Shown piece after piece: positions 48,797-64,000 of a stretch of DNA of 64,000 nt. Made by a program: the position numbers and the translations under genes. Origin of the DNA: Alphaproteobacteria bacterium (GTDB lineage Bacteria; Pseudomonadota; Alphaproteobacteria; Bin95); the NCBI GenBank assembly GCA_964291285.2, contig OZ219786.1, forward strand, positions 384,001 through 448,000. Direction: 5' to 3'. Within the stretch, counting starts at the first letter, position 1. Every line of letters starts with the position of its first letter. The notes beneath the pieces are model-generated. The model searched no databases. It was not told the origin of the DNA and worked only from the letters and a program-made list of their open reading frames with translations.

Positions 48797-48918
48797 GCAG
48801 TCAATCTGACTGCTCGCTCCGGTTCTCCAAGGTTCGCAAATTTCCTTGATCCTGAAAAGCACTCAGATTGACTGTGCGCTGGGCTACGCCCGCCATTGAA
48901 AGCAGTCAGATTGACTGC
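48797..48918. promoter_or_regulatory. Three near-palindromic 17-18-bp boxes (candidate protein-binding sites)
   Basis: GCAGTCAATCTGACTGCT (48797), AGCACTCAGATTGACTG (48858), AGCAGTCAGATTGACTGC (48901). Confidence 0.55.
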
Positions 48919-49100
48919 ATGGGTCGTGCCCCCAGGCGTGGTGTAGGAGCTGGAGCCACCATCGGTAGCTGTGGGTAAGTGGCCCGCCGCCGCGACCGTC
49001 TGGAGTCTGGCGGCGGCGGGCCACTTATCCATAGCGGATGGCCATCGCGGTGCCGGTAGGGTTGGGCTTCCACAGTCCATCCGACCGGAGGAGTACCACG

Positions 49101-50303
49101 ATGACCACCACCGACATGATGACCCTGCGGGCGCTGTTGGAGAAGAGTTCCGACGCCGATCTGCTTCGCGAGATGATCGGGTTCACGGCCGCGCGTCTGA
49201 TGGCGCTTGAGGTTGAGGGCCTTGCGGGCGCCGGGCACGGCGAGCGTTCGCCGGACCGGATCACGCACCGCAACGGCTACCGCGACCGGGTCTGGGAGAC
49301 GCGCGCCGGCACGGTCGAGCTGAAGATCCCGAAGCTGCGCAAGGGGAGCTACTTCCCGGGCTTCCTTGAGCCGCGGCGGATGGCGGAGAAGGCGCTGACG
49401 GCGGTGATCCAGGAGGCCTACATCAAGGGCGTATCCACCCGCTCGGTCGACGACCTGGTGCAGGCGATGGGCATGTCGGGCATCTCCAAGAGCCAGGTGT
49501 CCAGGCTGTGCGGCGAGATCGACGACAAGATCCGCGACTTCCTCGACCGGCCGCTGGAGGGCGACTGGCCGTATCTGTGGCTGGACGCGACCTATGTGAA
49601 GATGCGCGAGGCCGGGCGCATCGTCTCGGTCGCGGTCACCATCGCGGTGGCGGTCAACGACCAGGGCCGGCGCGAGGTGCTCGGCATGGCGATCGGCGCG
49701 TCCGAGGCCGAGACCTTCTGGACCGACTTCCTGCGCTCGCTCGCCCGGCGCGGCCTGCGCGGCGTCAAGCTGGTGATCTCCGACGACCACAAGGGCCTGA
49801 AGGCCGCCGCGACCCGCATCCTCGGCGCCACATGGCAGAGATGCCGCGTGCATTTCATGCGCAACCTGCTCGCCCATGCCGGCAAGCAGGGCCGGCGCGT
49901 CGTCTCCGCCTTCGTCACCACCGCCTTCGCCCAGGAGGATGCAGACAGCGCCTCCGCCCAGTGGCGCCAGGTCGCCGACCAGCTCAGGCCCAAGGCGCCG
50001 AAGCTCGCCGCCATCATGGACGAGGCCGAGCACGATGTTCTCGCCTACATGACCTTCCCGGCCGCGCATCGCGCCAAGCTGCACTCCACAAACCCGCTCG
50101 AACGCCTCCATGGCGAGATCAAGCGGCGCACCAACACCGTCGGCATCTTCCCCAACGAGAACGCCATCACCCGCCTGATCGGTGCCATCCTGCTCGAGCA
50201 GAACGACGAATGGGCCGTCCAGAGAGCCAGATACGTAACGCTGGAATCCATCGCTCCCGTGAGCGACAATGCAACCGTCAAGCTGCCCGCCGTGGCAGCC
50301 TGA
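49101..50303 (+). CDS. IS256-family transposase
   Basis: [58 protein letters not shown]. Confidence 0.97.
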
Positions 50304-50479
50304 GCCTACCGGCCCTACCCGCCGGACACCGCCACGGGCGCCAGGCTCTTACACCACGGCCGCACCTGCCGGTGCTAACTATCTGACATAGCGTCGTTTT
50401 TTCTCCCGAAATGCAGCGGTCGGGCAAGCGGGTCGCAAGGGCCCGTTCCCCGGCTGCAACCGGAGCCGGGAGAAACGCA

Positions 50480-51604
50480 ATGGCGAAGACTACCCTTACC
50501 GAGGCGCGCGTGAAGGCGCTCAAGCCCCGCAGGTCCGTCCGCGAGGTCCGCGACGGCAGGCTCAGGGGGTTCGGCGTCCGTGTGTCGCCCTCGGGCCGCA
50601 AGCAGTTCTTCATCCACTGCCAGCATCGCGGCGTGCGTATCTGGAAGATCGTCGGCGACGCCGGGTCGATGAGCGTCACGGACGCGCGGTCTGCGGCTGC
50701 GGACATGCTTGCCGCGATCAGGCGCGGCGGGGAGGCGCCGCTCACGCCGGACGAGACGCTCTTCGAAGCCGTCGCCGAAACCGTGTTCGAGCGCCATGCA
50801 AGGCTCTGGAAGGCCGGAACGCTCGCTGTCAACCGCAGCTATCTGCGCAACCGGCTTCTGCCGCATTTCGCCGGGCGTCCGGTTGCCGCCATCGACCGGC
50901 AGGAGGTAAGGAACTGGTTCGCCCGCCTGCGCGCGACGCCGGTGGCGGCGGACCGGTCGATGCCGGTGCTGTCCGTCATCATGAGGGAGGCGGAGGCCAT
51001 GGGCCTGCGCCCGGAAGGGTCCAACCCCTGCCGGGGCATCCGCCGCTACCGCCGCAAGGGCCGCGAGCGGTTCCTCCCGGACGAGGAAATCCGCCGCCTG
51101 TCCGCGCGGCTCAAGGCGCATGAGGCCCGCTGGCCGCAGCATGTCGCCGTCATCCGCCTGCTGCTGCTGACCGGCTGCCGCAAGGGCGAGATCCTCACCC
51201 TGCAATGGTCCGACTACCGGGAAGGCCGCCTGTTTCTTCGCGACTCCAAGACGGGGCCGAGGACAGTCTGGCTGTCGGAGCCGGCCCGGGCCGTTCTCGA
51301 CGGCCTTGAGCGGGAAGGCCGCCATGTGTTCCCGGCCCCGGATAGCGACCGGCCCCGGAGCGGAAGCTGGCTGGACCACTTCTGGCGCAGGGTCCGCGCC
51401 GAGGCAGACCTGGAGGACGCCCGCCTTCACGATTTGCGCCATACGCATGCGAGCCTTGCCCTCCGGCAGGGCGTGACGGTGCTCGCCATCGGCCGGTTGC
51501 TGGGCCACCGCAGGCCGGAAACCACGCTGAAATATACCCATGTCGCCGACGCCATGGTGCAGGACGCTGTCGAGACGGTCGGCGCCGTGCTGGAGGCAGA
51601 CTGA
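50480..51604 (+). CDS. Tyrosine recombinase/integrase with N-terminal arm-binding domain
   Basis: GFGVRVSPSGRKQF; TGCRKGE, SKTG, HDLRH, LLGH, KYTH. Confidence 0.95.
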   Translation: MAKTTLTEARVKALKPRRSVREVRDGRLRGFGVRVSPSGRKQFFIHCQHRGVRIWKIVGDAGSMSVTDARSAAADMLAAIRRGGEAPLTPDETLFEAVAETVFERHARLWKAGTLAVNRSYLRNRLLPHFAGRPVAAIDRQEVRNWFARLRATPVAADRSMPVLSVIMREAEAMGLRPEGSNPCRGIRRYRRKGRERFLPDEEIRRLSARLKAHEARWPQHVAVIRLLLLTGCRKGEILTLQWSDYREGRLFLRDSKTGPRTVWLSEPARAVLDGLEREGRHVFPAPDSDRPRSGSWLDHFWRRVRAEADLEDARLHDLRHTHASLALRQGVTVLAIGRLLGHRRPETTLKYTHVADAMVQDAVETVGAVLEAD

Positions 51605-62511: not shown

Positions 62512-62536
62512 GACAACCTCCCCCGGTATGGCGCGC

Positions 62537-62866
62537 TCACGCCAGTTCCTCCTGCCGGGCGAGCCATGTCTCCACTTCGGCGGCGAGCGCGCCGCGCTCC
62601 TCCGAGAGGCGCGCGGCCGCCAGCCTCTCCTCCTCCAGCCGGCCGAGCAGCAGCACCTCGCGCGCCACCCGCCCCCAGACCACCGCCGGCAGCCCGCCCG
62701 GCCCCCGGTCCGGCGGCGGACCCGGGTCCTCCTCCGCAAGCCGGTGGACGATGAAGCGCGACACCGGCATGCCCGCTTCGTCCGCCCGCGCCTTCAGCCG
62801 GCGCCACTCGCTGTCGGTCAACGTGACCGCGCGCTGGCGCCGCCGGTCCTCCCTGTCCCTCGTCAT
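62537..62866 (-). CDS. Ribbon-helix-helix (MobC-like) protein
   Basis: RAVTLTDSEWRRLKARADEAGMPVSRFIV. Confidence 0.7.
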   Translation of the reverse strand: MTRDREDRRRQRAVTLTDSEWRRLKARADEAGMPVSRFIVHRLAEEDPGPPPDRGPGGLPAVVWGRVAREVLLLGRLEEERLAAARLSEERGALAAEVETWLARQEELA

Positions 62867-62930
62867 GAGCTTCGTCCTCTCCCGCCATCGCCTGTATGGT
62901 CGCGGCCGCGCCGCCGCAGGGGGACAGCCC

Positions 62931-63538
62931 GTGACCGACAGACCGCCCGAAACCGCCCTCGACCGCCTCAGGGCCGATCTGGCCCGCCGGAACGATCCCC
63001 CGCCCCGGCTCCCGAATCCCCTCCGGCCCCGGCCGCCGCACCGCCGCCGGTGAAGCCGACGCCCGCGAACCGGCCGGCAGCCGGGTCCGGGCAAGCGCCG
63101 CCGGCCCGCCGGCAGCCCTTGAGCGTGGACCGGGCATACCTCCTCCAGGAAACCGCCCGCCGCCGCGAACGCTCCCGGACCCGCATCAGGATCAACCTCA
63201 CATGGGCGGCGGCCGTCACGCTTGCCATCGCCGTCCTCGTCACCGGCGCATACGTCTCCCCGACCCGTATGCAGGACGAGCTGTTCAGCCGCGTGTGGCC
63301 CTGGCGCGCCCATGTCTGGAACAAGTATGGCGGCGCCGTCATCTGGTGCATCAACGAGGCGCGCAAGACGAGCAGTTCCTTCACATGCCAGGTCCCGTTC
63401 CTCACCGACGGCCCCGACTGTCCCGTGCCCGACACGCAGGACGTCACCGCCGCATACCTCTGTCCGCCCTGGGAGAAATGGCCGACCGACCCCGCGCCGC
63501 ACTGGAGCGCCGAGGGACCGCCGCCATGGAGCCGGTGA
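62931..63538 (+). pseudogene. Membrane-anchored hypothetical protein, probably frameshifted at about 63000-63050
   Basis: GTG start TDRPPETALDRLRADL in one frame; TM segment WAAAVTLAIAVLVTGAY and Cys-containing tail in another. Confidence 0.45.
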
Positions 63539-64000
63539 GGCGCGGGCGCTTCCCGTCTGGCGCCCCGGGCGCCCCCGAATTGCCTAACAATCATTCCGTA
63601 TTTCCAGACAGAATACCCCTGGTAGACAACAGGCATCGTCATTTGCCATGATTCGGCGGATCGCCATGCCTATCCCGGATATCTCTACGGACCAGCATGT
63701 TCCGGCAGCGATCCACGCGCGTATCCACGGATTCTGCAATGCAGTTTCAGTTCCCCGGATTCAACCAACGGGCTCCCGCCACATCCACGATTGCTTCGTA
63801 TGGCTTTCCGGCAACCCCCTTGACATGTGCTCCAAGCCCCTGTATCCGTTGCCGTACACGAGAGAAGGACGGCGCTTCCCAAAACATGAAACAATCGTCA
63901 AAATTGGTTGCTTCGTGTTACACCACGGCTCGGGACACGATCACTGCATGATCGAAGCGGTCCCTGAGCGCCCGAACGCTGACCGCCCAGTCCCCTTGAT

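Follow-up and report, generated by a model that had tools for sequence, protein, structure and literature searches.

A 13.57-kb insert in an IS256 terminal repeat: a likely copy of a multicopy, two-integrase element family with an ACACC core

Why is the end of an insertion sequence (IS) split by a long insert that begins with two tyrosine integrase genes? This question is raised by a 64,000-nucleotide (nt) stretch of an Alphaproteobacteria genome, C2:384001-448000 of a five-contig, 6.1-Mb assembly. The whole stretch is called the window below, and its own coordinates are used unless a contig (C1 to C5) or another locus (numbered with L) is named. In the window, an insert of about 13.57 kb interrupts the right inverted repeat (IR) of an IS256-family element, and an earlier note on this DNA had regarded this IR as the attachment site of the insert. 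Our analysis led to a broader answer. The insert probably represents a transposon-like family of integrative elements that is present in many copies and integrates conservatively at ACACC plus matching 5-6 nt. The main interest is the family and its targeting by ACACC plus an overlap, not IS256.

The junctions were examined at the outset. The first 1439 of the 1452 nt of the IS256-family element, containing the left IR, the transposase gene and the inner part of the right IR, lie at 48922-50360 (+), as judged from the Transposase_mut domain and from intact copies, and the outermost 13 nt of the right IR, identical to those of intact copies, lie at 63930-63942 (+). The insert between them consists of 13,557 nt and one copy of the 12-mer TTACACCACGGC, that is, TT + ACACC + ACGGC, which is the IS256 repeat's own sequence. 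This core is present at 50349-50360 (+) as the left attachment site (attL) and again at 63918-63929 (+) as the right one (attR). Since the adjoining bases differ at both ends, the core duplication is exactly 12 bp. The whole unit is flanked by the 8-bp duplication ACTGCATG at 48914-48921, assigned by 8-mer pairing and by a contig join in the related public run X18, and at 63943-63950, assigned by 8-mer pairing. When the insert was removed, the rebuilt IS256 (1439 + 13 = 1452 nt) agreed at every position (0 mismatches) with the intact copies at C1:916821-918272 and C3:86818-88269, and two other genome copies differed from it by 1-2 mismatches; such a match is far above chance. The earlier note had described the split right IR, the 12-bp core repeat, the ACTGCATG duplication, a rebuilt IS256 of about 1.45 kb and two coupled tyrosine recombinases about 120 bp inside the insert, and all of them were found here, each feature at the position given there.

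The host element is an ordinary IS256-family member in every other respect. Elements of this family make 8-9-bp target duplications and are about 1.3-1.5 kb long. The host element likewise has a Mutator-type DDE transposase (gene at 49038-50303; Transposase_mut, PF00872, E 8e-120, 400 bits against a Pfam cut-off of 21), imperfect terminal IRs of about 28-32 nt, an 8-bp duplication and a length of 1452 nt; its sole oddity is the interrupted right repeat. A repeat scan also detected the IR across the insert, with arms at 48916-48945 and 63919-63948 that are 80% complementary. For all six left ends of this IS256 subtype in the genome, the window pair counted, an identical 8-bp duplication pairs the left with the right end. 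The evidence from public runs consisted of contigs, not raw reads. The X18 contig joins 48913 to 63943, skipping 15029 nt, with 8 letters fitting both sides and a shorter side of 35 letters; it is an unoccupied site with a single ACTGCATG. Among the public-run contigs listed, none bridges the 50360/50361 junction. Sponge-metagenome runs gave small shares only (0.07-0.09), and one of them, X1, covers mainly the IS256 part. Another IS256 copy in the genome, at C3:1837727-1843392 with the matching 8-bp duplication GAGGCGTC, harbours an insert of about 4.2 kb some 300 nt inside its left end.

Subsequently, the targets of related elements were compared. Five targets also have uninterrupted copies in the genome: IS256; IS-A, an 841-nt IS5-like element with 3 of its 11 copies occupied, one of them by a twin of the window element; IS-B, which carries DUF772/DDE_Tnp_1 and has four occupied left junctions; IS-C, another IS5-like element with one occupied copy; and gene D, a multicopy gene with a YAcAr domain, of which one copy is occupied and at least one adjoins another type of integrase. 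In each empty copy a single ACACC+N5-6 stands exactly at the split point of the occupied copies, and it stands on both sides when the copy is occupied. Apart from the window copy in IS256 and the twin in IS-A, family members lie in three more IS types, in another mobile-element gene and in unique DNA; at least 15 different sites, mid-gene positions included, are used in one genome. ACACC+N5-6 repeats flank ten attL/attR pairs in this genome, and also L060 (3.6 kb) and L082 (5.9 kb) in other genomes. When the unique left flanks from this and other genomes were compared, 51 of 63 had an exact ACACC 10-12 nt before the element end, for which the chance expectation is 0.00067 per position. The remaining 12 comprise two non-elements, nine flanks with a one-mismatch or shifted motif, and one flank (L041) without the motif.

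The repeats also indicate which bases travel with the element. Right ends read TTACACC in 14 of 18 cases, the other four being TTACACG, TTACGCC, TCACACC and TTTACACC, whereas the bases before ACACC in the empty targets are CG in IS-A, CC in IS-B and GA in IS-C. Because attR is mostly TTACACC whatever precedes ACACC in the empty target, the TT belongs to the element and the crossover lies to its right. Furthermore, the same bases after ACACC recur in targets that are otherwise unrelated. The window copy, which lies in IS256, has ACACCACGGC in common with the twin in IS-A; GGACACCGGCAAC is common to L046, in a ring-hydroxylase gene, and L047, in an MFS gene; and ACACCTTCCAG is found at L062, within a catalase gene, as well as at L071 and at C1:1171129 of this genome, both within a polysaccharide-deacetylase gene. 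The 5-6 nt after ACACC are therefore a property of the lineage and not of the site. Such recurrence at unrelated sites points to conservative site-specific recombination with identity in the overlap, and not to duplication by a staggered cut.

The flanks in other genomes were also classified. Of 31 non-redundant flanks, 6 are IS (IS66, IS3-type twice, IS1595, DUF772-type and IS256), 1 is Mu-like, 16 are ordinary genes, several of them cut mid-way, and 8 have no Pfam hit. Open reading frames (ORFs) at the junctions were picked by third-position G+C for this count. It leaves out loci without a left end (L048, L076, L087, L089), one with a short flank (L072), L063, those lacking a suitable junction ORF (L041, L049, L057, L058, L061, L068, L081, L082) and those with duplicate flanks (L053, L054, L055, L090, L060, L085, L080).

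We then examined the two integrase genes. int1 (50480-51604, +; 374 aa) starts 120 nt into the insert, and its stop overlaps by 1 nt with the start of int2 (51604-52794, +; 396 aa), the product of which is 41% identical to Int1. In both proteins the N-terminal Arm-DNA-bind_3 domain (DUF4102), Phage_int_M and Phage_integrase score above the Pfam cut-offs, Phage_int_M/SAM being the core-binding part. As read from the alignment, the catalytic motifs R, K, HxxR, H and Y are kept in both, as TGCR.GE, SKTG, HDLRHT, LGH and Y(T/A)H. Among solved structures, the HP1 integrase and the 5c6k integrase are nearest, and the catalytic domains align with both. Because of the DUF4102 arm domain, Int1 and Int2 are placed in the IntSXT subgroup of P4/SXT-type integrases, as described by Smyshlyaev et al. 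2021 (PMC8138268). In 47 of the 52 related loci, int2 comes directly after int1, 3-29 nt away, and the exceptions are cut or disrupted copies. Among 8000 candidates scored, 6355 were int1 homologues with E<=0.001; the 120 homologues listed are 77-96% identical and are named nothing beyond 'integrase'.

Structure prediction of an Int1-Int2 complex gave a score of 0.41 against 0.01 for the best control, with at least 71% of contacts agreeing between runs and a partner pLDDT of at least 76. In a benchmark, 58 of 80 solved complexes and 2 of 110 mismatched pairs attained this mark, but only 7 of the 80 did so at 0.60 or under. Since solved recombinase assemblies exist, the pass may show likeness only; the model gives weak support to the formation of a complex by the two integrases.

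A search of the genome with the first 2.5 kb of the insert gave 56 matching places. The conserved start CGCACC-N3-5-GGTGCTAAC..CTGAC marks at least 24 left ends, and a lineage whose integrase is about 60% identical contributes four more. The twin of the whole element, at C1:201958-188397, is 99.96% identical over 13.56 kb, which suggests recent movement. The sequence common to different elements is restricted to the first 2.37-2.41 kb, that is, the left end and both integrase genes, and ends within int2; most elements also have a common right-end module of 0.8-1.6 kb. Paired elements in this genome are about 8.2 to 39 kb long, and two 8.2-kb copies carry a Slam-like gene and a porin as cargo. 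Outside this genome, 53 loci were found in other Alphaproteobacteria assemblies, Defluviicoccus among them, often several per genome. Integrase matches were present in 15 of 16 other genomes of the genus (2-30 each), in none of eight genomes from other genera of the family, and in 2 of 16 genomes from other families.

From the observed anatomy, repeats, empty sites, recurrence of one core at unrelated sites and distribution, we propose the following mechanism. The mobility module would consist of the conserved 120-nt left end, the two translationally coupled, catalytically complete P4/SXT-type integrases and the right-end module, with variable cargo between them. The element would carry a core, TT-ACACC + 5-6 nt, flanked by the right end on one side and by CGCACC-N3-5-GGTGCTAAC of the left end on the other. 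By way of a circular intermediate, and through joint action of the two integrases, the element would integrate by conservative site-specific recombination at any genomic ACACC whose next 5-6 nt equal, or nearly equal, its own. ACACC would be read by protein and the next 5-6 nt would be checked by strand homology. Integration would leave a direct repeat of 10-13 bp, and the family may be active at present. Because all 12 positions match the core of the window lineage, the IS256 right IR would be one such site; the IS5-like transposase gene would be another.

Several observations weigh against this mechanism. The spacing from ACACC to the element end varies, being 10 nt in 11 flanks, 11 nt in 38 and 12 nt in 2. 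Four of the ten attL/attR pairs are imperfect: those in C5 and at C3:1616819 have one mismatch at the third of the 6 nt, that at C4:518087 has one within ACACC, and that at C3:1579038 has several. Either the requirement for homology would not be strict, so that the overlap could drift, or these copies mutated later. The ends at C4:278697, C1:567800, C1:802217 and C4:22756 are orphans; because several ends are orphaned in this way, pairing is blurred by rearrangements. A circular or excised form, in which right and left ends are joined, was looked for, and none was seen among the 47 ACACCACGGC sites in the assembly. The public-run contigs likewise contained neither a joint of 50360 to 63930 nor a joined form of right and left ends, although contigs cannot show absence. 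No excisionase was identified, and joint action of the two integrases is suggested by gene linkage and by the weak complex prediction only.

Other explanations were weighed against the proposed family. The view that the element is specialised for the IS256 terminal IR as a dedicated attachment site is by now largely refuted, and we regard it as extremely improbable. The recurrence that would favour it is real. Of the eight right ends of the window's IS256 subtype, two are joined to right ends of elements, each from a different lineage, and the repeat fits the core at 12 of 12 positions, the element-derived TT included. In another genome, a 73%-identical element (L079) occupies the same position of an IS256-like repeat beside a decayed IS256 transposase gene. 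The second occupied right end in this genome (L097, C4:278697-278722) is an orphan: a main-type right end adjoins the outer 25 nt of the IS256 right repeat, but neither an IS256 body nor a left end nor an 8-bp duplication to go with it was found anywhere in the genome, so the rest has been lost in a rearrangement. Against specialisation, the near-identical twin lies in an IS5-like gene. IS256 accounts for only one of the 24 left ends here and for one of the 31 non-redundant flanks from other genomes, which does not bear out the expectation that the boundaries of homologous integrase pairs fall in IS256 IRs. The IS256-element left junction is found in 0 of 16 congeneric genomes, although 15 of them carry the integrase. 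The remaining 6 of the 8 right ends are empty, and so are all 18 copies of a second IS256 subtype, whose repeat differs after ACACCAC. Thus, of the idea that an IS256 terminal IR serves as attachment site, integration by a core repeat within the right IR, and its recurrence, held up, while exclusive use of this end did not: the IS256 repeat is a good mimic of the window lineage's core, a recurrent but not a dedicated site. An IS end split by such an island is no evidence of a dedicated IS-targeting system.

It is also unlikely that the 15-kb unit of IS256 plus insert arrived whole, carried by an IS256 transposase that used the intact left repeat and, on the right, the outer 25 nt of the repeat. 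The 8-bp duplication does enclose all 15,029 nt of the unit, the transposase gene and left part do not differ from those of active-looking copies, the outer 25 nt are intact, and the sole alternative form seen, in the X18 contig, is a site without both parts. An IS256 that inserted first and only later received the insert would, however, show the same duplication, and the X18 site fits either history equally; contigs, moreover, cannot show absence of a state with IS256 only. Since IS256 and the element both have near-identical copies elsewhere, two recent separate events are plausible. The genome contains one complete composite, no second one with a different duplication, and no left end paired with the orphan at C4:278722; the search for the 15-kb unit at other places with new 8-bp duplications, in this genome and the 16 congeneric ones, was therefore negative. 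Rather less probable still is movement as a coreless transposon, of the cut-and-paste or copy-out kind, whose insertion at ACACC would duplicate 11 nt of the target. Many copies per genome at many different sites, with genes broken mid-way, would suit such a transposon, the repeat could formally be a duplication beside an element end ..TT, and known multi-recombinase elements (SE, Tn554) leave 6-bp footprints according to PMC10214605. A staggered cut would not yield the identical 5-6 nt at unrelated sites, seen per lineage in three independent cases, and the conserved part encodes no DDE or HUH enzyme. The conservative integration of a family with a carried core accounts for these identical bases.

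The role of IS in general was considered separately. The suggestion that multicopy IS provide neutral landing sites received modest support. As candidate evidence for a general IS preference, 9 of 24 left ends lie in IS, compared with 16% of the genome in five or more copies (p 0.009; a modest excess), and 12 of 24 lie in repeated DNA, compared with 29% of the genome (binomial p 0.026); this preference was not adopted, the copies being non-independent. The excess is explainable by copy number and harmlessness, and selection against gene hits alone could produce it. Among 44 pre-insertion ACACCACGGC sites, 5 of 19 in IS were occupied and 0 of 25 elsewhere (Fisher p 0.011; the sites are not independent). 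The IS256 left repeat (48922-48953) carries on the other strand ACACCACGCC, one mismatch from the element core, and none of six left repeats was occupied. As to the background, 29% of the 6.1-Mb genome is repeated (at least 90% identity over at least 300 nt), and several IS types have 10-25 near-identical copies, which marks an IS-expanded genome.

The remaining parts of the insert were as follows. The conserved left end (50361-50479, +) begins with CGCACC-N4-GGTGCTAAC..CTGAC.. and continues with a T-run and a conserved block before int1; it recurs in at least 24 copies in this genome, and 44 distinct left ends were aligned. In these 44, the block at 50440-50479 (..GGCTGCAACCG.A.CCGGGAGA..) shows a short inverted repeat around the ribosome-binding site of int1, which may be an operator or a translational hairpin. 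At the other end, 63711-63917 (+) contains ATCCACG three times (63711, 63723 and 63783) and closes with the bases ..GGTTGCTTCGTG. This right-end type, called W-type here, is also present at C1:188397, C2:1218589 and C4:596595. ATCCACG is confined to it, TGCAAC motifs read near int1 were not found in the right ends, and no consistent arm-type motif was established. In the commoner right-end type, comparison revealed a 10-nt motif that recurs, in reverse complement, within the left end; the earlier statement that the insert lacks terminal inverted repeats is therefore roughly right for the window copy and does not extend to the commoner type.

A right-end module of overlapping ORFs with NikA-like ribbon-helix-helix hits, two at or above the cut-off and one below, reads inward from the right end at 61748-63502 (-) and contains direct repeats about 340 nt apart. 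Both right-end types have such inward-reading gene arrays (the second at L031:545-1244). By sequence likeness, their products are candidates for excision control or for oriT recognition, the latter of which would make the elements mobilisable. The window right end is 97% identical to that of the 33-kb element at C2:1185468-1218589, whose integrase is only about 62% identical. Judging from this comparison, the window element looks chimeric, with the integrases of the main lineage and the right end of the other lineage.

The cargo between the two ends includes an IS at 53887-56438 (-), its duplicate counted, with a DDE_Tnp_1_4 transposase gene (54811-56193) and 22-nt IRs (54735-54756 and 56417-56438). 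A partial tandem duplicate of the end of this IS, offset by 847 nt, carries a transposase fragment (53964-54590, -) and gives rise to a 300-nt direct repeat of 96% identity (53887-54186 and 54734-55033); the same IS type is present again at 40142-41524. Fragments of an RTX calcium-binding repeat gene in changing frames were recognised at 57057-58600 (-) from HemolysinCabind hits and a frame plot. The RTX repeats extend over three ORFs in different frames at 57057-60081 (-), which probably represent a decayed RTX protein gene. A single-strand DNA-binding protein is encoded at 61086-61547 (+; SSB E 5e-28, TIGR00621 above cut-off), and genes of unknown kind are also carried.

Some observations concern related integrases. 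In a plasmid collection, only distant pairs (<42% identity) were found, for example on the Shewanella oneidensis MR-1 megaplasmid. There, at 32496-34993 (L094), a coupled 'site-specific integrase' pair of 39% identity has an overlapping stop and start; no clear homologue of the left-end motif was seen at this pair. Similar coupled pairs occur on Vibrio, Photobacterium and sphingomonad plasmids, and the paired-integrase architecture may be much wider than this family. A contig labelled Dehalococcoidia (L053) has the same element and the same IS3-type flank as Alphaproteobacteria contigs (L051, L054), which may reflect a binning error or recent transfer. Just upstream of IS256, a D-type YAcAr-domain gene lies at 46073-47824 (+); C2:380614-381663 was noted together with it. 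About a dozen genome copies of a different integrase, 43-45% identical to int1, probably represent another multicopy island family; one of them stands beside a copy of gene D (C4:463686-464735, adjoining the L037 gene).

Taken together, these findings allow a further proposal, which we offer as a tentative one. In Alphaproteobacteria, the elements could make up a widespread and so far undescribed class of 'site-specific transposons' with two integrases, in which a protein-read ACACC is paired with a carried 5-6-nt overlap checked by homology. Tolerance of mismatches could then lead to overlap drift, re-targeting, colonisation of IS and dozens of copies per genome, possibly with occasional rides on the host IS. 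A literature search, itself incomplete, brought up no paper describing DUF4102 integrases in tandem pairs or an element that uses an IS256 repeat, and a prior description may exist. If the family works as set out in the mechanism above, it would stand between classical integrases with one site and transposases with many, its specificity lying partly in the element's own short DNA. It would then account for the 20-30 copies that a tyrosine-recombinase element can reach within a single genome, and genome plasticity in IS-rich Alphaproteobacteria would have one more driver, so far unannotated. It would also mean that, in principle, the integrases could be re-aimed by editing 6 nt. For annotation, the limits of such islands may be drawn by a simple rule: the left limit is ACACC-N6 / CGCACC-N4-GGTGCTAAC, the right one ..TT / ACACC-N6.

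How does this family relate to known systems? A classical single-site element has one integrase and one conserved attB, typically a tRNA or gene end, and the insert family does not fit this description. Lambda-type secondary-site integration involves a core arm read by protein and a short overlap matching between donor and target, and mismatched events can change the carried overlap. Members of the present family seem to live by this 'secondary' mode as a rule, and their lineages have come to carry many different overlaps. P4/SXT-type elements share with it the set of Arm-DNA-bind_3, Phage_int_M/SAM and Phage_integrase, a short direct-repeat core and variable cargo. Island integrases of that type, however, act singly and at one site, whereas here two paralogous integrases are coupled, no excisionase is recognisable, and the target is not a tRNA or a single conserved gene but a 5-nt motif plus lineage-specific 5-6 nt, with up to about 30 copies per genome. 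Recombinase-in-trio (RIT) elements have three consecutive tyrosine recombinases, and only two are present here. No NCBIfam family model of Tn554, SE (strand-biased circularizing integrative elements) or GInt scored above its cut-off for the integrases, and generic Xer/integron models gave hits below theirs. SE and GInt are further marked by recombination of attL with attR that leaves no empty donor site, and by a strand-biased circle.

Tn554, SE and GInt are treated by Idola et al. 2023 (PMC10214605). According to that paper, these are, like the present family, transposon-like elements that encode more than one tyrosine recombinase at the left end and have some target specificity, a 6-bp spacer or footprint, several copies per genome and no conjugation genes. 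The same paper gives four core genes as needed by SE and GInt (intA-tfp-intB-srap and ginABCD) and tnpA, tnpB and tnpC by Tn554, whereas two genes are conserved here. The four-gene set, with two recombinases, a recombinase-fold protein without RHRY and a small auxiliary protein, is absent, int1 abutting int2; compared with Tn554 by description (TnpA + TnpB + TnpC), the family has two recombinases and no conserved third gene after int2. The recombinases of all three systems belong to other subgroups than Int1 and Int2. In that account, too, SE occur in Gammaproteobacteria only, at 1-2 copies per replicon, and their 'fingerprint' and 'footprint' flanks come from different sites, whereas both flanks usually match the target here. 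Tn554, SE and GInt are the nearest described systems in behaviour, and the P4/SXT-type island integrases the nearest in protein family.

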